Of a stretch of 32,000 bases of DNA, positions 9,913-32,000 are shown in pieces (the first letter of the stretch is position 1; each line of letters begins with the position of its first letter). The notes under the pieces are model-generated. The model did no database searches, was not told the DNA's origin, and worked only from the letters and a program-made list of their open reading frames with translations. Both the position numbers and the translations under genes were made by a program. Source of the DNA: Promethearchaeota archaeon (GTDB lineage Archaea; Asgardarchaeota; Lokiarchaeia; Sigyniarchaeales; SOKP01); NCBI GenBank assembly GCA_030606485.1, contig JAUWGH010000001.1, forward strand, positions 60,001 to 92,000, in the 5' to 3' direction.

Positions 9913-10707
9913 ATGAAAACTGTAGGAATAGATATTGGGAGTTTATCTACAAAAATTCTATTATTGGAAAATAATGAGATTAAAAATTATAAAATCGCAA
10001 GATCCACTCATAATTTTCAAAAAATTGGTCATCAATTATTTGATCAAATAATGTCTGAAGAAAATTTACATAGGAAAGATGTTTTTATAATGAGCACTGG
10101 TTATGGACGGCATACTATTGATATTGCTGATCAAAAAGTTACTGAAATCACTGCTCATGCGAAGGGTGTATTATACTTTTTTCCAGATGCAACCTCTGTT
10201 ATTGATATTGGGGGCCAAGATTCCAAAGCAATCTTAATATCTTCAAAAACTAGGAGCCCTATTGACTTTCAAATGAATGATAAGTGTGCAGCTGGCACAG
10301 GACGCTTCTTAGAAGTTATGGCAAATGCTTTAGAGGTACCTATAGAAAAATTAGGTGATTTAGCATTAAGATCAAAAAAACCGGAATCTATCTCATCAAC
10401 TTGTACAGTATTCGCGGAGTCAGAAGTAATATCATTATTTGCACAAGGTGCTAAAAAAGAAGATATTGCAGCTGGTATCCACAAATCAATAGGTAGACGA
10501 GTGGCTTCAATGGCGAAAAGAATTGGAGTAAAGCCACAATTAATTTTTTGCGGAGGAGTTGCTAAAAACCCGGCAGTGAAGGTCTTCTTAGAAAAAGAAC
10601 TTGAGTTTAAGATTGAAATACCACAGTTTAATAATAATAACAATATGGATGCACCTCAGTTGACTGGAGCTTTGGGAGCCGCTTTAATTGCTCGAGAAAA
10701 AGTGTAA
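9913..10707 (+). CDS. Acyl-CoA dehydratase activase (HgdC/BadG/BcrD ASKHA ATPase with [4Fe-4S])
   Basis: GIDIGS, TGYGR, EITAHA, IDIGGQDSK, NDKCAAGTGRFLE, CTVFAESEV and GALGAA motifs. No dehydratase/reductase partner genes in the window. Confidence 0.92.
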   Translation: MKTVGIDIGSLSTKILLLENNEIKNYKIARSTHNFQKIGHQLFDQIMSEENLHRKDVFIMSTGYGRHTIDIADQKVTEITAHAKGVLYFFPDATSVIDIGGQDSKAILISSKTRSPIDFQMNDKCAAGTGRFLEVMANALEVPIEKLGDLALRSKKPESISSTCTVFAESEVISLFAQGAKKEDIAAGIHKSIGRRVASMAKRIGVKPQLIFCGGVAKNPAVKVFLEKELEFKIEIPQFNNNNNMDAPQLTGALGAALIAREKV

Positions 10708-10722
10708 AGCAGTAAAAATTTT

Positions 10723-11307
10723 TTATTTCTTGCCAAATAAATCGCTTGGCTTCATTAAATGTGGTTCTTCTTCTTCCTCCTTTTTCTTTTTCTTCTTCTT
10801 TTTCATACTATCTGGGACATACCCATAAATCTCACCCTCTTCTGCCTGTCCTGTCCCAGGAGGAGGTTGTAATTTTGGTCCACTTTGTGGGTAACTCATT
10901 CCAGCTGAGATTTGTTCTGCAACTGGTTGGGAAAAATCAATTGATACTTTTGGACCTTCTGCTGTAATAGTTTTTAATTCTCTCATAACATTCTCTAGAT
11001 TCATTGATTGAACGCTTTTATTCATAGTGTCCATTATTTCTTTTAATCTATGTGAGGTTTCACGTAATCCTTTTGGATTAATACCTGTCAATAAAGCATC
11101 TAGGCTTGTTTCAATAGTTTTATTCAAATCCATTAAAGAGTTTTGAACTTGTTTCCAATGTTCATTCATTTGATTTGCAATTGCCTTAATCATTTTAACT
11201 GTTTCATTCATAAAAGCTACATGACTTTCGTATCTTTCTGAATCCTTAGCACGCAAATCAGATATTATCATGATGAGTTTTCGAAGTTGTTCTTTATTTT
11301 CACTCAT
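10723..11307 (-). CDS. Hypothetical protein: helical N-terminal half, Pro-rich and K/E low-complexity tail
   Basis: 194-aa ORF converging tightly on the activase gene. Confidence 0.75.
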   Translation of the reverse strand: MSENKEQLRKLIMIISDLRAKDSERYESHVAFMNETVKMIKAIANQMNEHWKQVQNSLMDLNKTIETSLDALLTGINPKGLRETSHRLKEIMDTMNKSVQSMNLENVMRELKTITAEGPKVSIDFSQPVAEQISAGMSYPQSGPKLQPPPGTGQAEEGEIYGYVPDSMKKKKKKKKEEEEEPHLMKPSDLFGKK

Positions 11308-11342
11308 GATATAATAATTAAGTTACTAATTTTTATATTTAT

Positions 11343-11374
11343 AGCTAATTATTCATGTTTTCTCATAATTAGCT
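11343..11374. promoter_or_regulatory. 10-bp perfect inverted repeat (AGCTAATTAT-N12-ATAATTAGCT) in a divergent promoter region; possible operator
   Basis: Seen directly. It lies between the divergent starts at 11307 and 11564; chance occurrence in AT-rich DNA is not excluded. Confidence 0.25.
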
Positions 11375-11563
11375 TTGATATTTATGTTTTTCCTATGTAT
11401 TAGCATTTAAATTCTTGTAAATTTAAAACTCCTATTTGATTCTTCTTATTAATGCGTTTTCAGATTTTTATAATAAGATAAGATTTTATTTAGCAAAAAC
11501 TTAATAAAATTCATAAAAAGTCATTTACTTTACCAAATAAGTTTAGAAATAAATGAGAAAATT

Positions 11564-13042
11564 ATGACTCTTGAAAAATTTGATTTAATTTATAAAGATA
11601 ATAGGTGTAAGATAAAAGATAAAGAAAAGATTCTTTCTAAATTAAAGGCTATTTTGGGAGAAGAAAATGTTTCAACCAAAGAAATAGATTTAATTGCTTA
11701 TTCTAAAGATTCTACGCTAATAACCTTAATTTGGAGAATCCAGGGAAAATTAGCAGCATTACCCGATTTTATAACATGGCCTGAAAATAATGATCAAATA
11801 GTTCAGACTCTAAAATTAGCAAATGAGGAAAAAATTCCTGTAATCCCTTATGGTGAAGGTTCAGGTGTTGTTGGTGGTGCGATACCAGTATATGGTGGTA
11901 TTATTATTGACATGAAAAAATTCAATAAAGTATTGGAGATTAATGATAAAGATTTAACTGTTACGGTTCAAACAGGTATAAATGGGATGAATTTAGAGAG
12001 ATATCTCAATGCTAAGGGCTATACTTGTGGACATATTCCCCAATCTATCTATATGTCTTCTGTTGGTGGGTGGATTGCCCACAGAGCAGCAGGTCAATTT
12101 TCTACAAAATATGGAAAAATAGAAGATATCGTCTTGGGGTTAGAAGTTATTTTACCACAAGGTGAAATCATTGAACTAAAAACAATAATCAGAGCAGCAA
12201 CCGGACCCCAATTTGATAAATTATTTATTGGAGGAGAAGGCACATTAGGGATAGTTACTAAAGCAACTTTAAAAATATGGCCATCTCCAGAAAAAAGAGA
12301 ATTAATCTCTTTCGCATTTCCAACTATAGAAGATTCATTAGAAGCTATCAGAAATATTTTAAGGAATCAGATTTATCCTGCAGTGATTCGTATATATGAT
12401 GCCTCTGAAACAGTAAGGCATTTCCCCCAAGTTAAAGAAGCGAAAGATAAAGTTATGGCTGTTTTTGTTTGTGAAGGAAATGAAAGACTTGTAAATTTAG
12501 AAGGAATTATTACAAGAGAAAAATGTGAAGATAATAATGGTGTTAATTGTGGAGAAGAACCAGTAGAACACTGGTTTGAAACAAGATTTAGGGTAACAGA
12601 AACATCATTAATTCCTCCATATAAAATTGTAATTGACACTATTGAAGTATCTGTTATGTGGGAACATGCTGCAGAATTATATCATTTAGTTCTTGATTCA
12701 GTTAAGAAAGTTAAAGGTATTCTTTATATAACCGCTCATGCTTCACATTTTTATCCCAATGGGGTTGGTTTTTATTTTTCATTTGCTGGTGTTGCAACTG
12801 GAGGAAAATCTAATTTTGAGTTTTATCAAGAATGTTGGGATGTTATAATGGATGGATGTGTTAAAGCTGGAGGATCTATTGCTCACCATCATGGGATTGG
12901 CATCAATAGAGCACGTTGGATGGAAAAAGAATGGGGGAAAGCTTTAAGATCACTAATAGATATAAAAAATTTACTTGATCCAAATAATATTTTAAATCCG
13001 GGAAAAACTTACTTTCCCCCTGAAAAGGGAGGTGCTAAATAA
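11564..13042 (+). CDS. FAD-binding oxidoreductase, alkyl-dihydroxyacetone-phosphate synthase (AGPS)-like
   Basis: PYGEGSGVVGG, GHIPQS..SSVGGWIA, YGKIEDIV.GLEV, GGEGTLGIVT, SHFYPNG, HHHGIG and DPNNILNPGK. The HHHGxG and HxYxxG motifs fit the AGPS branch rather than GlcD/D-LDH. Confidence 0.85.
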   Translation: MTLEKFDLIYKDNRCKIKDKEKILSKLKAILGEENVSTKEIDLIAYSKDSTLITLIWRIQGKLAALPDFITWPENNDQIVQTLKLANEEKIPVIPYGEGSGVVGGAIPVYGGIIIDMKKFNKVLEINDKDLTVTVQTGINGMNLERYLNAKGYTCGHIPQSIYMSSVGGWIAHRAAGQFSTKYGKIEDIVLGLEVILPQGEIIELKTIIRAATGPQFDKLFIGGEGTLGIVTKATLKIWPSPEKRELISFAFPTIEDSLEAIRNILRNQIYPAVIRIYDASETVRHFPQVKEAKDKVMAVFVCEGNERLVNLEGIITREKCEDNNGVNCGEEPVEHWFETRFRVTETSLIPPYKIVIDTIEVSVMWEHAAELYHLVLDSVKKVKGILYITAHASHFYPNGVGFYFSFAGVATGGKSNFEFYQECWDVIMDGCVKAGGSIAHHHGIGINRARWMEKEWGKALRSLIDIKNLLDPNNILNPGKTYFPPEKGGAK

Positions 13043-13043
13043 A

Positions 13044-14318
13044 ATGAGTATCTTCGAACAATTAAAAAAGTATAAATATATAATTCCTATCATTACCAAT
13101 GCTGATCGTGATGTTAAAAGAATAATTTTAAAGAGTTTTAGGTTAAAAAAAAAATTTTTTTATCCTCAAGGAGAATATAAAGCTGATGTAAAAAATTTGA
13201 TTAATTGTATGTTATGTCTTAAAATGTGCAGATTTGATTGCAATTCTCTCCAAGGTGCAAAAACTGAAAGAGTAGCACCTGCTTATAAATCCCTAATTGG
13301 CTATTATCTTTCAGTCGGCAAAATCGATCCTTCTAAAGAAGAAAATAAAGACTTTATTAATTTAATGTATGAATGCTGTAATTGCGAAAACTGTAAAATT
13401 TGGTGCCCATTCGATTTTTCAGTAGTTTCATTGCTTGAAACTGTTCGAGATGATATTAATGATAAAGGTTTGACTCCAAATTATATAAAAGAACAAATAG
13501 AAAAATTAAATAAAACTCATACTATAGAAGACACAAATATATTCAAGACTTATGAGGAGAAGGTCATTGCAAATGTCGAATCTGATGGAAATGATGATGT
13601 TTTTTATTATATTGGATGCGAAACGATGAAATACCCAGAAGTTGTTAAAGGCAATATTGAAATATTGAAGAAGGCTGGTATTAAATTCTCAACTAACTTA
13701 GATAAAAGATGGTGTTGTGGTGCCCCATTATTTAATACTCGACATTTGGATTTAGCGAAAGAATATGCAAAGCAAAATATTGATTTGATCACGGGTTCAG
13801 GGGCAAAACTAGTTGTGACTGATTGTCCGGGTTGTGCTGATACTTTACTTAATCGATATGAAAAGATTGGTTTTAAATCAAAGGTAAAAGTGATTCATAT
13901 CTTACAATTATTTAAACAATTAATTGAGGAAAATAAACTCATTCTTAAAAATCAAATTCCTGAAGAATTCAAAAATGTAGTCTATCACGATCCATGCTTG
14001 ATGTCAAGAAATTTAAATGTTATTTCCGAACCAAGAGAAGTTTTGAAGAAAATTCCGGGATTAAATCTATTAGAGCCAATTTGTAATGAAAAATATACAC
14101 ATTGCTGTGGGTATAGCGGTACGCTCCATTGGGCAAATAATGATTTAGCGGTAAAAATCTCGCAAAATAGAGTCAATGAATTGATTGAAACAGGTGCAAA
14201 TATAATCGTTACGGCTTGCCCACTTTGTGAATTAGGATTAGAAAAAGGAATTGAAGAAAATAATAAAAAGAAAATTAAAATAATAGACTTAACTGAATTA
14301 ATTGCAAAAGTTATATAA
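13044..14318 (+). CDS. Fe-S oxidoreductase with two ferredoxin-type clusters and two CCG domains (GlpC/HdrD-like)
   Basis: CMLCLKMCRFDC, CCNCENCKIWCP, WCCGAP/DCPGC, YHDPC, HCCG and TACPLC motifs. ATG at 13044 is 1 nt after the upstream stop; the track's GTG at 13032 overlaps the upstream gene. Confidence 0.9.
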   Translation: MSIFEQLKKYKYIIPIITNADRDVKRIILKSFRLKKKFFYPQGEYKADVKNLINCMLCLKMCRFDCNSLQGAKTERVAPAYKSLIGYYLSVGKIDPSKEENKDFINLMYECCNCENCKIWCPFDFSVVSLLETVRDDINDKGLTPNYIKEQIEKLNKTHTIEDTNIFKTYEEKVIANVESDGNDDVFYYIGCETMKYPEVVKGNIEILKKAGIKFSTNLDKRWCCGAPLFNTRHLDLAKEYAKQNIDLITGSGAKLVVTDCPGCADTLLNRYEKIGFKSKVKVIHILQLFKQLIEENKLILKNQIPEEFKNVVYHDPCLMSRNLNVISEPREVLKKIPGLNLLEPICNEKYTHCCGYSGTLHWANNDLAVKISQNRVNELIETGANIIVTACPLCELGLEKGIEENNKKKIKIIDLTELIAKVI

Positions 14319-14350
14319 ATTTCAAAAGAAAATATAAAAATGTGATAAAA

Positions 14351-15892
14351 ATGGATACATATGTTTTATGCCTTGATATTGGGACTACTAACATTAAAGC
14401 TTTCCTTTTTGAGAAAAATGGTGAAATTTTCGCCCAAGCCAAAAGAAAACCTAAATATATTATGGAAGAAAAGGGTCAAATAGAGCAGGATCCAAAAGAA
14501 ATCTGGGAATTAAGCAGACAAGTTATGGAAGAAGTTATAAAATCAAATAATTTAAGTCCCGAGAATATAGCAGCAATTGGTATTACTACTCAAAGAGCTT
14601 CCTTTCTTTTCTGGGATAAAAATACAGGAAAAATTTATTCTAATATTATCACTTGGCAAGATAAACGATGTGCTTCATATACTGAGAAAAAAAATAAAAG
14701 TTTCTATTTTAGATTTTTACGAGGTATAACAAAATTTATCTACTTATTTACACGCGATATAAAATTATTAACATTTTCAACCATAAAATTCACTACTGAT
14801 CATACATCCATGAGAACAGGATATTTTCTTGAAACACATCCGGAGGTTAAAGAATTAATTAGCAATCCCAATACTAACGTAGTATGGGGGACAATTGATA
14901 CTTGGATATTATGGAATTTAACTGAAGGGAGGGTTTTTGCTACTGACTATTCAAATGCTCATACCGGTTTGGTTGATCCATTTAAATTAGAATACAATTC
15001 TATTTATTTAAAAGCAATGGGAATTCCAGAATATATATTACCAGAAATTAGAGATACTAGAGGAGATTTCGGAAAAACAAAAATTTTTGGCGGCGAAATA
15101 CCCATTACATGTTTAATTGGAGATCAAATGGCCAGTTTATTCGGACAGTGCTGTTTTAACAAAGGATCAATGAAAGTTACAAATGGTACGGGCTCATTTG
15201 TAGATCTTAATACAGGACAAAAATGTTATGCTTCAAAAAGAAAATTATACCCACTAATTGCTTGGCATATCAATGAACAAACCACTTATATGACGGAAGG
15301 AATGTCTCATAACGCCGGTAATATCATAGATTGGTTACAGAATGAACTGGGACTATATAATGATCCCTCCGAAACAGAAAAAATGGCATTAAGTGTGGAT
15401 TCAACAGAGGGCGTTTATTTTTTACCAACATTTACAACCGGCATCTCATTTCCATATTGGGATTCAACTGCACGAGGAAATATTTTTGGTGTAGACTTAG
15501 ATACTAAAAAAGAACATATTGTAAGAGCAGTTCTAGAAGGATTTTGTTTTAGAATAAAAGATATCGTTGAAGGGATTATTAAAGACACAAAAATTCAAAT
15601 AGAAAAAATAAAAGCTGATGGGGGAGTATCTCAAAATAAATTTCTTCTTCAGTTTTTAAGCGATATATTAGAAATGGATGTTGAACTTACAGGTAACCCT
15701 GAAACTACTGCATTAGGTGCTGCTTTTATGGCTGGACTAGCAGTTGGATATTGGAAGTCTGAAGAAGAACTCTTGCAGATAAGAAGAGTAGAAAAAACCT
15801 ATAAACCTCAGATGACAGAAGAAGAACGTAATAGGAAATATATGATATGGAAAGATATAGTGGCAAGATCTCTAGACTGTGTTTATTATTAA
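14351..15892 (+). CDS. FGGY carbohydrate kinase, glycerol kinase 5 (GK5)-like
   Basis: LDIGTT, TQR, TWQD, GTIDTW, TDYSNA, GDQ, GTGSF, ADGG and TALGAA motifs, plus an amphipathic insert after WQD. ATG at 14351 follows a GTGA-type RBS. Confidence 0.9.
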   Translation: MDTYVLCLDIGTTNIKAFLFEKNGEIFAQAKRKPKYIMEEKGQIEQDPKEIWELSRQVMEEVIKSNNLSPENIAAIGITTQRASFLFWDKNTGKIYSNIITWQDKRCASYTEKKNKSFYFRFLRGITKFIYLFTRDIKLLTFSTIKFTTDHTSMRTGYFLETHPEVKELISNPNTNVVWGTIDTWILWNLTEGRVFATDYSNAHTGLVDPFKLEYNSIYLKAMGIPEYILPEIRDTRGDFGKTKIFGGEIPITCLIGDQMASLFGQCCFNKGSMKVTNGTGSFVDLNTGQKCYASKRKLYPLIAWHINEQTTYMTEGMSHNAGNIIDWLQNELGLYNDPSETEKMALSVDSTEGVYFLPTFTTGISFPYWDSTARGNIFGVDLDTKKEHIVRAVLEGFCFRIKDIVEGIIKDTKIQIEKIKADGGVSQNKFLLQFLSDILEMDVELTGNPETTALGAAFMAGLAVGYWKSEEELLQIRRVEKTYKPQMTEEERNRKYMIWKDIVARSLDCVYY

Positions 15893-16052
15893 AATTTAAA
15901 ATTTCTAACCTTTTTTTTACAATTACCTGAAAAAATAAATTTTGATTTAAATTATAATTAAATTGAATTCTTATTCTCATATTAAAAATATATAAAACTT
16001 TTTATTCTAAATAATTAAAATTCTATCCTTAAATTTTTTCCTTCTTTTCCAA

Positions 16053-25787: not shown

Positions 25788-25985
25788 ATGGGACCTATAA
25801 AAAGACTTGCAAAAATTAAATTCAGAGGTCATAGAATGCATCAAATAGGTAGTAAATTCCGTGTAAAATATCTTTTAATACCTTTTGTATTAATTAATAT
25901 TGTAGTTTTAGGGATTATTTTTTGGTATATAGAAAAATTATTCATTAAAGGTGTGGTTTTATTTGGGAGGACCAGAAGCAATTAG
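25788..25985 (+). CDS. Possible small single-TM protein
   Basis: Basic N-terminus and one hydrophobic segment; overlaps the NACHT gene start by 23 nt; may be spurious. Confidence 0.25.
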   Translation: MGPIKRLAKIKFRGHRMHQIGSKFRVKYLLIPFVLINIVVLGIIFWYIEKLFIKGVVLFGRTRSN

Positions 25986-28900
25986 GGGTTATTTAATTCA
26001 GACTATTATATCTCTTATAGAATCTTTAGAAAAAGATGAAGAATGGACAAGACTTGAACTAGAACCGAAAAATGAATCTGAAAAAGTAGATATTTGCTTT
26101 CATTATCCCAATAAAAAAAGAGTAATTCAAGTAAAATCCTCAGAAAATCAAATAAATTTAAATAAAATAAAAAAATGGTGTGAAGATCTAAAGAATTCCA
26201 CTGAGGCTGATGAATATGAATTAAAGTTGGTTGGAACTTCTTTTACTAAAGGTGCTTTAAATCAAATTAAATCTGGTCATTATATTGATGTCAAATTACC
26301 TGAACCTGAAACAATTAGCCTTGATAGATTGATTGAAATAAGCTCACATAGACTCTCCAAATATGTATTAAATACAGGAAATCTAATAACACCAATACTT
26401 AGTGAAAAAATTATAATCAATTTGATAACAGAATTACTTTTAAAATCCACCACTGGAGAGTGTATTCCAAGAGAGGATTTTAGACATAAAATTTTAAAAT
26501 TTTTTGCTTCAAATAAAGATGTATTTCGGGTAAAAATTTCAGATGACCTCTTAAAGGAAATAGAATATCACTATTTTACTTTCTTAATTGAGGAAATTAA
26601 TGAAAATCCTTTCATTGGAATCCCTACAGATATTAAAAGTGCATCAAAAAAATTAAATCTAGTGGATTATTTTGTTCCAATTCAGCTTCAAAAATATAAT
26701 TTTTCTCCAAAAGATAATGAGGAAAAACCCAAGATAGCAAATAAGCGATTTAAAATAAATTCAGTTTTAAGAGATAATGATAAATTAATAATTTTATCAC
26801 CTCCAGGGAGTGGTAAGACCACTCTCTTAAAAAGAATATTGTTACAATGTGTTGGTCCCGAAATTAGTAAAAAGATTCCTGATAATCTTGAAATAGATTA
26901 TATTCCATTGTATTTAAGATGTAGAAATATAAAAGTCAATCATTTCAATAATTTCTTAGAAAATCTTTACAATTTAGCAAATACAGCTGAAATGTTTGAA
27001 TTTAGTGATGAATTCAAATATTATATCAATTATTTAATTTTCAATAAGAATATTATTTTAATTATTGATGGATTGGATGAAATTTCAGATGAGCAATTTC
27101 GAGTTAGGTTTATAAAATATCTTTTGAGGTTTATTAGAAGGATAAGTACTATTAAGGTAATAGTAACATCTAGAGAACCGGGTTTTCGAATTTTAAAGGA
27201 TTATGTTACTGATGATTTTAATTTTTATACGATTACAGATTTAGATAAAGATGGTATCTTTAATTTAACAATTAAATGGTATGAAATTTTTGTAGGTATA
27301 AAAGAAAAACATCAAAAAGAAGCAAGAAATCTGGTTGAAGAAATCATAAAAACAGAGAATATATTTGAATTAGCAAAAAATCCACTTTTACTTACTACTT
27401 TACTATTTTTAAAGCGTTCTTTAGGTATAATACCTGCGAATAAGACAACTCTATACGATCAAGCGATACAATTATTAATTAAAACATGGAACGTGGAAGG
27501 GTTTAAACCCCTAAATTTAATTGATATTAGAGCACAACTTTCATTTCTATCTTATATAATGACAATCCAAGGAAAAAGCCAACTATTTCATCAAGAATTA
27601 ATGAAAATTATTCAACAAGCTCGTGAACAAATGCCAGAAGTGCTTGATTATTCAGAATTAAGCCCTTCAGATTTTCTTGAACGAGTAGAGTCTCGAACTT
27701 CATTGATCATACTTTCTGGTCGTGATCTAAAAAATGGTCTTTTAAAGGAAAAATATGAATTTAGACATAAGACTTTTCAAGAATATTTAACAGCTTTTGC
27801 AATTGTTAATGGTTATTATCCAAATCGTAAATCTACAGATAGCATTATATCTATTCTTGAACCTTATTTTGCAAACGATAATTGGGTAGAAATCATACCT
27901 ATGGTAGCAGTGTTAATGGGAAGGGATGCATATCAATTAATTAAGACCTTAATTAAATTTATAAGAAATTGGGAAGAAAAAAATAGAAGAACTCCTCTTA
28001 TATTTATGAATCCTTCAACAAAGGCTTTAATACAGTCTATTTTGGATGAGGCACAAATTCCTAAAAAATTAGTAAAAAAGGCTTTTACTATTTTACTAGA
28101 ATACTCAGCAAGGGTTTATATGCAACCAGAAAAATTATTTCTGTTTTTAAAATGTAAATATAAAGATATTTTTATAGAATTGGTTGAATCTTTTTTTATG
28201 ACAAAAGAAAATCTCCTTGATTTCGGGGATTTACTAGCCAGAATTTATAGAAGCTTTTTGAGTGAGGAAAAAGATTTCTTCCCATCAGAATTTGTGAAAG
28301 AGAGATTAAATTCTGAATATTCACTAAATCAAATTAAGAGTCTATTATTATTGATGATTTTTGCAGCAGATCTAAAAAATATTCATCAATTATCTTCAAG
28401 CCAAAAGAAAGAATTGTTTAATTTAGGCAATAAAATAGTTAATTTATTGTTAGATTCTAAAGAAAAGATAATATATTTTTCTGCAAGTTGGGCAATTACA
28501 CATTTTTTAATTAAAGGATTATGGACTCCAATTGATAATTATGAAATTTATCAGAGATTATTGAATTTATGGATAAATGAAGAAAGTGAGGATATTAAGT
28601 ATATTTTAAGTTGGGCAATTACCTCACTACCAATTATTGATAAATCATTATCCCCATTTATTTATAATAAAAGGATAGAACAACTTATATTAGAAAATTT
28701 AGAAAAAAAACCTTATGACGTCTATAAATATTATAAATTAAAAAAGCCCTTTCATGCTGCTTTAATTTTCTCGCATTATCTAAACATTCTAGAAGCAAAA
28801 GACATTGTAAAAAGTATTATTTCTTATTTTAAAATTTTAATCAGTACTACTGAGATATGTTATGAATCAAAAGATGTGATTATTAGAGACTTTAAACCAT

Positions 28901-29046
28901 TTATACCGCTTCTAAAGGCAGTAGGAGAGTCTGGAAAACCTTTATTAGATGAAATAGAAAAAATTAAAAATCTTAAAAAAGGAATGAGTTTTTATTCCAA
29001 TCTTTTGACTAAGGAAATAGACTATTTTCAATTTTTAAGTATCTAG
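25963..29046 (+). CDS. NLR-like NACHT NTPase with N-terminal PD-(D/E)xK (Cap4/DUF4297-like) nuclease and C-terminal helical repeats
   Basis: GGPEAIRGYLIQ, EPKNESEKVD and IQVKSS nuclease motifs; Walker A SPPGSGKTT; Walker B LIIDGLDE; VTSR, NPLLL and FRHKTFQEYLTA. TTG at 25963 follows an AGGTG RBS (track start 25951). Confidence 0.88.
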   Translation: MGGPEAIRGYLIQTIISLIESLEKDEEWTRLELEPKNESEKVDICFHYPNKKRVIQVKSSENQINLNKIKKWCEDLKNSTEADEYELKLVGTSFTKGALNQIKSGHYIDVKLPEPETISLDRLIEISSHRLSKYVLNTGNLITPILSEKIIINLITELLLKSTTGECIPREDFRHKILKFFASNKDVFRVKISDDLLKEIEYHYFTFLIEEINENPFIGIPTDIKSASKKLNLVDYFVPIQLQKYNFSPKDNEEKPKIANKRFKINSVLRDNDKLIILSPPGSGKTTLLKRILLQCVGPEISKKIPDNLEIDYIPLYLRCRNIKVNHFNNFLENLYNLANTAEMFEFSDEFKYYINYLIFNKNIILIIDGLDEISDEQFRVRFIKYLLRFIRRISTIKVIVTSREPGFRILKDYVTDDFNFYTITDLDKDGIFNLTIKWYEIFVGIKEKHQKEARNLVEEIIKTENIFELAKNPLLLTTLLFLKRSLGIIPANKTTLYDQAIQLLIKTWNVEGFKPLNLIDIRAQLSFLSYIMTIQGKSQLFHQELMKIIQQAREQMPEVLDYSELSPSDFLERVESRTSLIILSGRDLKNGLLKEKYEFRHKTFQEYLTAFAIVNGYYPNRKSTDSIISILEPYFANDNWVEIIPMVAVLMGRDAYQLIKTLIKFIRNWEEKNRRTPLIFMNPSTKALIQSILDEAQIPKKLVKKAFTILLEYSARVYMQPEKLFLFLKCKYKDIFIELVESFFMTKENLLDFGDLLARIYRSFLSEEKDFFPSEFVKERLNSEYSLNQIKSLLLLMIFAADLKNIHQLSSSQKKELFNLGNKIVNLLLDSKEKIIYFSASWAITHFLIKGLWTPIDNYEIYQRLLNLWINEESEDIKYILSWAITSLPIIDKSLSPFIYNKRIEQLILENLEKKPYDVYKYYKLKKPFHAALIFSHYLNILEAKDIVKSIISYFKILISTTEICYESKDVIIRDFKPFIPLLKAVGESGKPLLDEIEKIKNLKKGMSFYSNLLTKEIDYFQFLSI

Positions 29047-29961: not shown

Positions 29962-32000
29962 ATGATTTTAAGTAGTAAGGATACGGAAAGATTTCTTTTT
30001 TTTAAAAATTTGTTTTCTGAATTATTTTCAATTAATAAAATTTATGAAGAGAAACAAACTCTAAATAAAAGTTATATAATACCAATTTTAGAAGAAGGAC
30101 TTTCAAAAAGTATATATTTATCTGCGTTACTTGTACGGAGCCAACCCATAGAGGTTTTAGAACGAGAATTTCAAAAATATTTAGACACAATGGATTTTAA
30201 TATTCAATATGGATATAGACTAAATGAAGTTTTAAAATCTTATTATAATGGTTATGTCAATTTATTACTTTTTGAATCTGAACGATTTCATTTCACCGTA
30301 CATATAAAATTTAATAAAAATCTAACTGATACATATAATCTTAGAGTGATTTTTACTTTTTGGTATGAAAATCTAAAAAAAAGAAATGATTTCGATTTAA
30401 ATTATTTACATGGAATCTATGATGATTTCATATTAGGTCATAAAATATCAAATTCTCTTGAATCCATTGGTTATTCAAAGATTCAGTTAATCGACATTGA
30501 TAATTATAACCCTCAGACATATGTAAGTCAAAAGCCAAAAAATTTCTGGGTTGAGGAGAGACCTTTTATGTGTATAACAATGATGATTGAATTGCTTAAT
30601 GCGAATCCAATTAAATTAATTAATGATTTAGTTGAACATGTCTCAAGTGTAGAAAAGATTATTATTAATAATCGTGAAAAAACTTATGGAACATCCATAC
30701 AATTCTTTAAGGAATTTTCAATTGAATTACAAAATTTTATTGCAAAGGGAAATGAATTATTTAGAATTGCGGTTGATTCGAGTGAAACAGTATCAGAAAG
30801 AGGGATTCAAGCACAAAAAAAAGAAGACCTTTTAGAAGAGGAAAGTAAAACAAGAACATTAACACCACAAATAATAATTGAGTTATTTCAAAAAGCGTAT
30901 GAACAGGATCTGAAAAAAAATGAATCCAGAGAGGATAGAGGGTTCCGCTCATTAAGTACACTTTATGAAGAATATGGGAAAAGTTACCATTTTTCACGAG
31001 CAACATTGTATAATTGCTTTAATAATTCAAAATTAGAATTATTATTAGAAAAAAAAGAAAGAAAAAAACAAGGTGGTGGTTTTAAATTCAGAATAAAAGA
31101 TAGAGAATTATATGAAGAGATTAATGAAGAAAATCTTGAAGATCAGTTTATGAAAGAGAAAATGGAAATTGAAAAAGCATTATATCATTATAATAAAGAA
31201 GAGCCTGATCTTACAATAAAAATTCTTAAAAAAGTCTTAAGATCTTCAAGTAAACAATTACAAAAGGATCATAATTTATTTTTGGGCGCAAAATTTTATT
31301 TGTCAAAATGTTATTACCAAAAAGAGACTTATCAGCAATCATATGAGCTATGTGAACAGATACTGAGGGAGGATGATTCTCTTATAGATGTAAAACATTT
31401 AAAAGTCAAATCTCTCTTTAAATTACGAAAATTTGATGAGATAAATAATCTTTTAAAATCTTATATAAATGAGATAGAAAAAATATTCAAAATTTATGAT
31501 TTTTATTATGAGAAACATAAAAAATTGATAATTGGAAAATTTACTCCTAGCTATGAATATGCGAAAGAATTTTTTAAAAAATTAAATGAAGCAGATGACT
31601 TAACCAAATTTGTCTTATTGATCAATAAAGCTGAGTTCGACAATCGAATACATTTTACCGGGCGGAGAAAAAAACTGACCTTCTATAATAATAATACGAT
31701 AATTTTTGAAAAATTATTTAGATTTCTGGCAGAATATCTAATAATAAATATTGAACTTCACCGAAGGAAATTTTTCAGTCTAATTTTGGAAAATGATTTG
31801 GAAAAAATTAGAAAATCATTATCCGAGTTTATTTATATGTTAAAAAGTGAAAGATATGATAATTTATTTGAAGATGACTATTTTTTATATTACCTATATT
31901 ACTTTAGAAATATCTTAAATATATATATCGGGGAATCCGAATTATTGCTATTTGACAAGGAGTTAAAAGATAAATTTCCTAATTTTAACTTTAGAAGATT
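29962..32000 (+). CDS. Large hypothetical protein (3' end outside window) with a central wHTH-like segment and TPR-like helices
   Basis: Frame is open from ATG 29962 to the window end (at least 679 codons) and is absent from the track because there is no stop. Contains LSTLYEEYG..FSRATLYNCF..KQGGGFKFRI followed by AKFYLSKCYYQKETYQQSYELCE. Confidence 0.85.
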   Translation, partial: MILSSKDTERFLFFKNLFSELFSINKIYEEKQTLNKSYIIPILEEGLSKSIYLSALLVRSQPIEVLEREFQKYLDTMDFNIQYGYRLNEVLKSYYNGYVNLLLFESERFHFTVHIKFNKNLTDTYNLRVIFTFWYENLKKRNDFDLNYLHGIYDDFILGHKISNSLESIGYSKIQLIDIDNYNPQTYVSQKPKNFWVEERPFMCITMMIELLNANPIKLINDLVEHVSSVEKIIINNREKTYGTSIQFFKEFSIELQNFIAKGNELFRIAVDSSETVSERGIQAQKKEDLLEEESKTRTLTPQIIIELFQKAYEQDLKKNESREDRGFRSLSTLYEEYGKSYHFSRATLYNCFNNSKLELLLEKKERKKQGGGFKFRIKDRELYEEINEENLEDQFMKEKMEIEKALYHYNKEEPDLTIKILKKVLRSSSKQLQKDHNLFLGAKFYLSKCYYQKETYQQSYELCEQILREDDSLIDVKHLKVKSLFKLRKFDEINNLLKSYINEIEKIFKIYDFYYEKHKKLIIGKFTPSYEYAKEFFKKLNEADDLTKFVLLINKAEFDNRIHFTGRRKKLTFYNNNTIIFEKLFRFLAEYLIINIELHRRKFFSLILENDLEKIRKSLSEFIYMLKSERYDNLFEDDYFLYYLYYFRNILNIYIGESELLLFDKELKDKFPNFNFRR

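Follow-up and report, generated by a model that had tools for sequence, protein, structure and literature searches.

What does an archaeal relative of the ether-lipid enzyme alkyl-dihydroxyacetonephosphate synthase (AGPS) do when its gene stands in one unit with genes for an iron–sulfur (Fe-S) protein and a glycerol kinase-like enzyme? The question is raised by a 32,000-nucleotide stretch of DNA from a Promethearchaeota archaeon (assembly GCA_030606485.1, contig JAUWGH010000001.1, positions 60,001 to 92,000; hereafter the window), which is part of contig C10 of this 3.75-Mb, 13-contig Asgard genome. Positions 11564-15892 of the window hold three co-oriented open reading frames (ORFs) on the + strand, encoding an AGPS-like flavoprotein, an Fe-S protein with CCG domains (the CCG protein) and a kinase resembling glycerol kinase 5 (GK5). 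Counted from ATG starts at 13044 and 14351, the gaps between them are 1 and 32 nt, which confirms the description in a first-pass annotation. The reading that we favour, with a probability of roughly 0.55, is that the flavoprotein and the CCG protein make up a two-subunit flavin adenine dinucleotide (FAD)/Fe-S dehydrogenase for a glycerol-phosphate-type substrate that is made by the kinase and is probably other than plain sn-glycerol-3-phosphate (sn-G3P).

The flavoprotein (P0001, 492 aa; 11564..13042, + strand) is placed in the VAO family by its Pfam domains (FAD_binding_4, 3.8e-41; FAD-oxidase_C, 2.6e-33), its matches to solved structures and its invariant residues. It scores under every NCBIfam cut-off, the best model being GlcD (232.5 vs 567.9 bits, and 142 vs 897 bits). 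Its best solved sequence relatives are the AGPS enzymes of Dictyostelium (2uuu, E 1.9e-65) and guinea pig (4bby, E 2e-56), followed by a D-lactate dehydrogenase (3e-41). Both motifs on which the first-pass annotation had based the likeness to AGPS are present on the + strand: SHFYPNG at residues 394-400 (12743..12763) and HHHGIG at residues 441-446 (12884..12901), the latter matching SHHHGVG in the alignments with 2uuu and 4bby, as the counterpart of the His615-617 loop. In pairwise alignment with the guinea-pig enzyme, from which the position count is taken, Tyr404 (12773-12775, + strand) falls on the catalytic Tyr578, His441-443 fall on His615-617 and Arg276 falls on Arg419, within a PA.IR..D segment that we take to be the site of Arg419 in AGPS.

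Across a 134-sequence alignment, the resulting R / SH.Y..G / Y / HHHG signature recurs in every member of the surrounding clade, including YgcU of E. coli, and residues R276, H392, H395, Y397, Y404 and H441-443 are invariant across 69 clade members. The same columns in E. coli GlcD and in a paralogue from the window genome (C4:149920) hold the His/His/Glu metal-site motifs H-x-G-D-G-N-x-H and G-E-H-G, so that the GlcD motif H-A-G-D-G-N-M-H stands where the flavoprotein has SHFYPNG. The flavoprotein lacks this metal site and has His/Tyr/His there, as in AGPS; it is also the only one of the 12 FAD_binding_4 paralogues of the genome with the triple histidine. Judged by sequence, the flavoprotein thus belongs to an AGPS/YgcU-like clade (about 1,900 cluster representatives at E <= 1e-30) and lies outside the clade of metal-dependent GlcD and D-lactate dehydrogenases. 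The comparison with AGPS itself consists of pairwise alignments, the trees holding no genuine full-length AGPS; a 643-aa protein considered for that role (P0262) was rejected as less AGPS-like than the flavoprotein (190 vs 224 bits to 2uuu).

AGPS (EC 2.5.1.26) and the flavoprotein have the VAO/PCMH fold and the counterparts of Arg419, Tyr578 and His615-617 in common. The AlphaFold (AF2) model of the flavoprotein (predicted local distance difference test score, pLDDT, 94.6) can be superposed on mammalian AGPS (4bby/5ae3) with Z 40.7-41.3 and a root-mean-square deviation of 2.2 Å over 465-470 residues at 28% identity, and on mouse D-lactate dehydrogenase with Z 42.5 over 442 residues. In size, however, the two differ: the flavoprotein has 492 aa against 584-658 in AGPS, its FAD-to-cap segment is shorter, and its modelled residues 1-483 match AGPS residues 149-658, leaving residues 1-148 without counterpart; the sequence alignment to Dictyostelium AGPS begins at Dictyostelium residue 94. 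In mammalian AGPS, the N-terminal ~148 residues contribute a helix that gates the lipid tunnel. AGPS also has neither an Fe-S/CCG partner nor a kinase neighbour, whereas the flavoprotein always has both, and the locus lacks adjacent genes for fatty-acyl reductase (FAR) or the dihydroxyacetone phosphate (DHAP) acyltransferase GNPAT; in Myxococcus, by comparison, the pathway partner genes lie next to that for AGPS. AGPS is a redox-neutral enzyme, which the flavoprotein almost certainly is not.

E. coli YgcU (b4463), a putative FAD-containing dehydrogenase, belongs to the clade of the flavoprotein, to which it is 30% identical over 496 residues (E 3e-67), and carries the same signature. Its gene neighbours the FGGY kinase gene ygcE, genes of the electron-transferring flavoprotein (ETF) type (ygcQR), FixCX-type genes (ygcNO) and an anti-terminator gene; unlike the window unit, this neighbourhood has no CCG protein.

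The partner of the flavoprotein is a soluble protein of 424 aa (13044..14318, + strand), in which Pfam recognises a two-cluster ferredoxin-like domain (Fer4_17/Fer4_8) followed by two copies of CCG (2.1e-33). It has 20 Cys, with CxxCxxxCxxxC and CCxCxxCxxxC motifs, and no transmembrane-like segment in its sequence. The same domain order is found in GlpC, GlcF and HdrD/TfrB-type proteins, to which the similarity is distant: 23% identity to E. coli GlpC (E 4e-19), 21% to GlcF (E 1e-12), and a remote likeness also to TfrB and HdrB/D. All NCBIfam scores remain below cut-off, with TfrB best (178 vs 385 bits), then LdhH and GlpC, the two GlpC models at 102 vs 278 and 71 vs 280 bits. Whereas GlpC partners a GlpA of the DAO fold, the CCG protein partners a flavoprotein of the VAO fold; no glpA or glpB gene lies within the window, and in several genomes the operon with the CCG gene also has a distinct gene for a GlpC-like protein.

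Four lines of evidence argue that flavoprotein and CCG protein are a physical pair: the adjacency of their genes, translational coupling, a fusion and a predicted complex. The ORF list starts the CCG gene at GTG 13032, a codon that forms part of a Shine-Dalgarno-like GGAGGTG (13028-13034, + strand). This element is contained in the final codons of the flavoprotein gene and precedes ATG 13044 by 9 nt, so that the second gene is translationally coupled to the first. In one relative (P0129), the two proteins occur as a natural FAD-Fer4-CCG fusion. Finally, the complex was predicted in three runs with an interface score (ipSAE) of 0.92, contact agreement of >=95% and partner pLDDT of >=87, whereas the best of 3 controls scored 0.00; of 80 solved complexes 58 attain the score mark applied, and of 110 mismatched pairs 2 do. 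The predicted interface places residues 53-65 of the CCG protein, which span its first cluster motif, against the FAD domain. As a prediction, this supports binding of the two proteins. Separately, at an Asgard locus of another family (L131, G006:C2:164086-165507) the genes for flavoprotein and CCG protein share a reading frame of 856 aa that is open except for one TAG between them; the arrangement mimics the P0129 fusion and is probably a coincidence of frame.

The third gene (14351..15892, + strand) encodes a kinase of 513 aa from its ATG, or 516 from GTG 14342, also a possible start. It has the FGGY_N and FGGY_C domains and stays narrowly below the GlpK cut-offs of NCBIfam (464.6 vs 498 and 461.7 vs 590 bits). 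The proteins closely related to it come from Asgard archaea, and NCBI names several of these 'glycerol kinase 5'; the 'Glycerol kinase 5' of Acanthamoeba is 41% identical to it. In a maximum-likelihood tree with this one eukaryotic GK5 sequence, the kinase falls in an 18-row clade with 100/100 support, together with Acanthamoeba GK5 and sequences from Thermoplasmatota and from Spirochaetales metagenome-assembled genomes (MAGs), and separate from the canonical GlpK of E. coli and Asgard archaea. The earlier assignment of the kinase as GK5-like therefore holds at the level of tree and motifs, the TQRA/S motif and an insert after WQD being common to the kinase and the GK5-like subfamily.

Structures of E. 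coli GlpK have defined Arg83, Glu84, Trp103, Tyr135, Asp245 and Phe270 as glycerol-binding residues, Glu84 and Tyr135 being among those that hold the distal hydroxyls. The kinase clade shares the FGGY fold of GK5 and GlpK and retains Arg83, Trp103, Asp245 and Phe270. In place of Glu84, however, the kinase has Ala (Ala/Ser/Gly across the clade), and the DPYFS loop with Tyr135 is replaced in the clade by an insert of ~20 residues. To our knowledge, the substrate range of GK5 is poorly defined. A second kinase of the genome has the canonical NQRET/DPYFS motifs, and its gene adjoins one for a glycerophosphodiester phosphodiesterase. As an aside, Acanthamoeba GK5 (P0393, 803 aa, with an FHA domain) nests within the clade of Asgard, Thermoplasmatota and Spirochaetales-MAG kinases, which raises the possibility that eukaryotic GK5 is of archaeal origin, although a single eukaryote is far too few for a conclusion.

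That the three genes belong together is borne out by 80 related loci from Promethearchaeota MAGs, whose flavoproteins are 66-92% identical to that of the window. The flavoprotein gene is followed by the CCG gene in 78 of the 78 loci that extend past it, and an FGGY kinase gene comes next in all 66 that extend past the CCG gene (67 with the window), which argues that the arrangement is not due to chance. The first-pass annotation had named grouping of the flavoprotein with GlcD together with hydroxy-acid oxidation, or lack of synteny elsewhere, as outcomes that would overturn it; instead, the flavoprotein does not group with GlcD, and the trio is kept in all informative related Asgard loci. Matches at close identity were confined, among 101 sampled Asgard genomes, to the GTDB family of the window, where 12 of 14 genomes have them. 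The usual order is amylase-like, GlmS and GlmM (divergent), a 492-aa protein, flavoprotein, CCG protein, FGGY kinase, alpha/beta hydrolase, MazG-like and PurC. The lineage of the window has lost the upstream 492-aa-protein gene, of which a homologue, 40% identical, lies on contig C8 (G000:C8:282205-283677), and its hydrolase and MazG-like genes sit 37 kb downstream.

Several further observations concern these loci. The conserved protein of ~492 aa directly precedes the flavoprotein gene at L026:5403-6878 and at 57 other related loci; it matches nothing in Pfam or NCBIfam, lacks a transmembrane segment and may belong to the module as another component. One contig labelled 'Candidatus Nanopelagicaceae bacterium' (Actinomycetota; L091, DATKTW010000067.1) encodes a flavoprotein 69% identical to that of the window within a complete Asgard-type locus (GlmS, GlmM, 492-aa gene, flavoprotein, CCG protein, kinase, hydrolase and PurC) and is probably a mis-binned Asgard contig. 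MAGs of the JBHL assemblies that bear the labels Hod-, Hermod-, Thor- and Odinarchaeota also have flavoproteins that group within the same tight clades. The VTT, VIT1 and BcrAD ATPase genes upstream of the window unit were considered as further members and were not counted, being shared solely with the closest relative (L025).

Beyond the family, the pair recurs in the company of kinase and glycerol-3-phosphate (G3P) genes, and this linkage provides support from independent lineages. In other Asgard families, where the flavoprotein orthologues are 41-54% identical, the gene orders are XylB-like kinase-GlpA-GlpB-GlpC-FAD-CCG (L131, L133), GlpABC-FAD-CCG (L129, L130, L134), kinase-FAD-CCG (L132, L135), FAD-CCG-GK5-like kinase (L127) and FAD-CCG-GlpA-like...GlpK (L128), FAD standing for the flavoprotein. 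A Thermoplasmatota MAG (L125) has FAD-CCG-FngA-FngB-DUF1667-GK5-like kinase, FngABC being an electron-bifurcating type of G3P oxidoreductase (PMC13689815). Metagenomic contigs add FAD-CCG-glpABC (L109), a FAD-CCG fusion beside a GlpA-like gene, an HAD-FAD fusion with an FGGY kinase and GlpD (L111-113), and a PfkB-FAD fusion with aldolase and sugar genes. Relatives of the flavoprotein are accordingly found fused to a PfkB kinase (P0198) and to an HAD phosphatase (P0252). FngABC and GlpABC (PMC13689815) thus share operons with the pair in Thermoplasmatota and other Asgard families, yet their catalytic subunit has a DAO fold with a BFD-like [2Fe-2S] domain and is unrelated to the VAO-fold subunit of the pair.

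Does the pair stand in for the textbook G3P dehydrogenases? DAO_C-type GlpA/GlpD genes occur in 66 of the 101 sampled Asgard genomes and, among the 27 genomes with the module, in at least 19, a co-occurrence that rules out the pair as a replacement for GlpA/GlpD. The window genome itself encodes a GlpD-like protein and an FngABC-like trio of GlpA-like (DAO plus BFD [2Fe-2S]), Pyr_redox_2 and DUF1667 proteins (G000:C4:185654-188820, minus strand; L139:2654-5820), whose architecture fits that described in PMC13689815 and which has no kinase adjacent. In this genome, too, the pair would hence be an addition to GlpA rather than a replacement for it. The suggestion of the first-pass annotation that the pair interconverts G3P and DHAP without GlpAB is therefore weakened: the link to glycerol-phosphate metabolism stands, but not the substitute role, given the GlpD-like, FngABC-like and canonical-motif GlpK enzymes encoded elsewhere in the genome.

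Taken together, the pair is linked to glycerol-phosphate metabolism as an addition to GlpA/GlpD, and each of its features narrows the reaction. The glp and Fng operon partners point to glycerol-phosphate metabolism, and the kinases and the phosphatase fused to or beside clade members point to a small phosphorylated substrate. The Fe-S partner, or ETF in E. coli, suggests net redox chemistry, while the invariant, metal-free AGPS-type site suggests that substrate or product has a DHAP-like end. From these features we infer the nature of the substrate, the direction of the reaction and the order of kinase, then dehydrogenase. The GK5-like kinase would phosphorylate the terminal hydroxyl of a glycerol-like polyol, and the flavoprotein would then oxidise the neighbouring C2 hydroxyl to a DHAP-type ketone phosphate that could enter glycolysis, making use of the Arg/Tyr/His-His-His site by which AGPS binds and enolises the dihydroxyacetone-phosphate moiety and which the flavoprotein has retained. 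Electrons from the flavin would pass to the first [4Fe-4S] cluster in the ferredoxin-like domain of the CCG protein and onward through its clusters to an acceptor. Such a soluble two-subunit dehydrogenase, with no membrane anchor present, would belong to the catabolism of glycerol or glycerolipid headgroups in an organism whose class is fermentative or syntrophic. A substituted glycerol phosphate, the other stereoisomer (sn-1) or a longer polyol phosphate is a more likely substrate than plain sn-G3P, because GlpD-like and FngABC-like enzymes are present, because G3P dehydrogenases are co-operonic with the pair elsewhere and because the kinase has lost two residues that hold the distal hydroxyls of glycerol.

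Some observations weigh against this dehydrogenase reading. Most close relatives use a XylB/LsrK-like kinase even though their flavoproteins are 66-73% identical to that of the window: this type is found in 56 related loci and the GK5-like type in 10 besides the window, and both types occur together at one locus (L074). On the flavoprotein tree, a single 13-row clade takes in the GK5-type loci (SH-aLRT branch support, a Shimodaira–Hasegawa-like approximate likelihood-ratio test, 94), and only ~3 changes of kinase type are needed. The altered pocket of the window kinase may thus say little on the substrate of the dehydrogenase. At another locus (L106), the pair adjoins a lipid kinase of the diacylglycerol (DAG) kinase family instead, a hint that some clade members, at least, act on a lipid. 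The comparison of the modelled fold, moreover, cannot separate AGPS from D-lactate dehydrogenase (Z 41.3 vs 42.5). Finally, literature searches on prokaryotic AGPS-like and YgcU proteins gave no biochemical data on any clade member and no paper assigning a function to the clade.

Of the alternatives, the one to survive best is that the pair is a plain sn-G3P dehydrogenase isoenzyme, the kinase making G3P and the pair oxidising it to DHAP with an acceptor unlike that of GlpD or FngABC; we regard this as possible, if rather doubtful. The repeated, strong linkage of the module to glycerol kinase-type and G3P dehydrogenase genes speaks for it, as do the AGPS-type site, which suits DHAP as the product, and the operon of the window family, which consists of only the dehydrogenase pair, the kinase and the hydrolase and would amount to a self-contained route from glycerol to DHAP. 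Oxidation of G3P (E0' -190 mV) is difficult for anaerobes (PMC13689815), so that several enzymes with different acceptors would be plausible. Isoenzymes, however, are unusual companions in one operon, and at least 8 loci from several lineages combine the pair with GlpABC, FngABC or GlpD in this way. The co-occurrence with DAO_C-type enzymes in most module-bearing genomes, the GlpD-like, FngABC-like and canonical-motif GlpK genes of the window genome and the absence of Glu84 and Tyr135 from the adjacent kinase likewise count against it.

A role in lipid metabolism is unlikely. Here, the kinase would act on 1-O-alkyl- or 1-acyl-glycerol and the flavoprotein would oxidise the resulting alkyl- or acyl-G3P to alkyl- or acyl-DHAP, from which it might then split off the chain in a catabolism of ether lipids, the extreme form being a true alkyl-DHAP synthase. 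In its favour, AGPS is the closest characterised relative, with the catalytic Arg/Tyr/HHH residues intact, and the kinase pocket is remodelled at the site of the distal glycerol hydroxyls; at most related loci an alpha/beta hydrolase gene comes after that of the kinase, a DAG-kinase-family enzyme takes the place of the FGGY kinase in L106, and the organism comes from cold-seep and marine sediments. FGGY and PfkB kinases and Cof-type HAD phosphatases, however, work on small soluble substrates, the flavoprotein lacks the ~148 N-terminal residues of mammalian AGPS, no FAR or DHAP acyltransferase gene is adjacent, and a redox-neutral synthase needs no Fe-S partner. A survey found no plasmalogen pathway in Archaea (10.1101/2025.10.10.681575), which counts against a lipid-linked role as well. 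A still slimmer chance falls to the version in which kinase and flavoprotein act as an alkyl-/acyl-glycerol pair, converting alkyl-G3P to alkyl-DHAP and then releasing the chain by AGPS-type flavin chemistry in an anaerobic breakdown of ether lipids. If true, the kinase would be of the long-sought alkylglycerol kinase type, and relatives of eukaryotic AGPS and GK5 would act as a pair in Asgard archaea.

The exchange of acyl for alkyl groups proposed by the first-pass annotation fares no better: a true ether-lipid synthase is unlikely because a seemingly obligatory redox partner is present, because the N-terminal region of AGPS is missing and because no FAR or GNPAT gene is near, while a separate cluster with PlsC and dehydratase/activase genes is the better candidate for a route to ether or vinyl-ether lipids. 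This cluster (G000:C5:97809-104951, minus strand; L140:2809-9951) encodes, in addition to an HAD hydrolase, a protein of 559 aa that contains two PlsC-type acyltransferase domains, two dehydratase-like proteins (DUF2229/HGD-D), an activase ATPase of the BcrAD/BadFG family and another PlsC-like protein, and resembles the anaerobic plasmalogen synthase PlsA/PlsR. The genome thus has PlsC-type acyltransferase genes on contig C5, in addition to many NAD_binding_4 proteins; PlsC-type domains were not found in four archaeal control genomes. Also in the field of lipid synthesis, the idea that the pair is the 'missing' glycerol-1-phosphate dehydrogenase of Lokiarchaeia, matches to Fe-ADH_2 in the genome being weak, was dropped, with no test aimed at it, given that Lokiarchaeal genomes are reported to encode an AraM-like enzyme of this type (PMC6737245).

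Highly improbable, finally, is a 2-hydroxy-acid dehydrogenase of the GlcD/GlcF or Dld type (D-lactate, glycolate), which might clear D-lactate arising from DHAP via methylglyoxal during glycerol use and which would fit the two-subunit architecture of GlcDF and many D-lactate dehydrogenases, the rank of GlcD as best NCBIfam model and the fold tied with mouse D-lactate dehydrogenase, but is made doubtful by a GlcD score far under the cut-off (232 vs 568 bits), by the change of the hydroxy-acid-binding His/His/Glu metal site to the His/Tyr/His of AGPS and by 11 other FAD_binding_4 paralogues in the genome, one of them with GlcD-type motifs.

As for the borders of the unit, an AT-rich intergenic region (11308..11563) separates the flavoprotein gene from an upstream gene on the opposite strand (10723-11307) and is presumed, from its sequence, to hold the promoter on the + strand. 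At the other end, a run of eight T (15911..15918, + strand), 19 nt past the stop codon of the kinase gene, is a likely archaeal terminator and end of the unit; the ORFs downstream lie on the opposite strand. A tRNA-intron endonuclease is encoded among the neighbouring genes, and a BcrAD/BadFG-family ATPase of 264 aa (9913-10707, + strand; Pfam 5e-60) two genes upstream, with no dehydratase or reductase partner nearby. Towards its 3′ end, the window holds two large ORFs on the + strand, one of 1031 aa (25951-29046) and one of >679 aa (29962-31998) that runs off the end. Metagenomes of cold seeps, marine sediments and the subsurface contain DNA near-identical to that of the window; they come from 11 studies, not counting the likely source.

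The AGPS/YgcU-like clade spans organisms from E. coli to Asgard archaea, and the reaction is known for none of its members. Their regular coupling to kinases, to Fe-S or ETF partners and to G3P dehydrogenase operons suggests that anaerobic glycerol or glycerolipid metabolism may hold a step that is not in the textbooks. Many orthologues are currently labelled 'alkyldihydroxyacetonephosphate synthase' by JGI (the Joint Genome Institute) and 'FAD-binding oxidoreductase' by NCBI; an established function would correct the automatic 'alkyl-DHAP synthase' labels, which imply that Asgard archaea synthesise ether lipids and could lead the debate on the lipid divide astray. Knowing the substrate would, in addition, show from what kind of dehydrogenase eukaryotic AGPS evolved.

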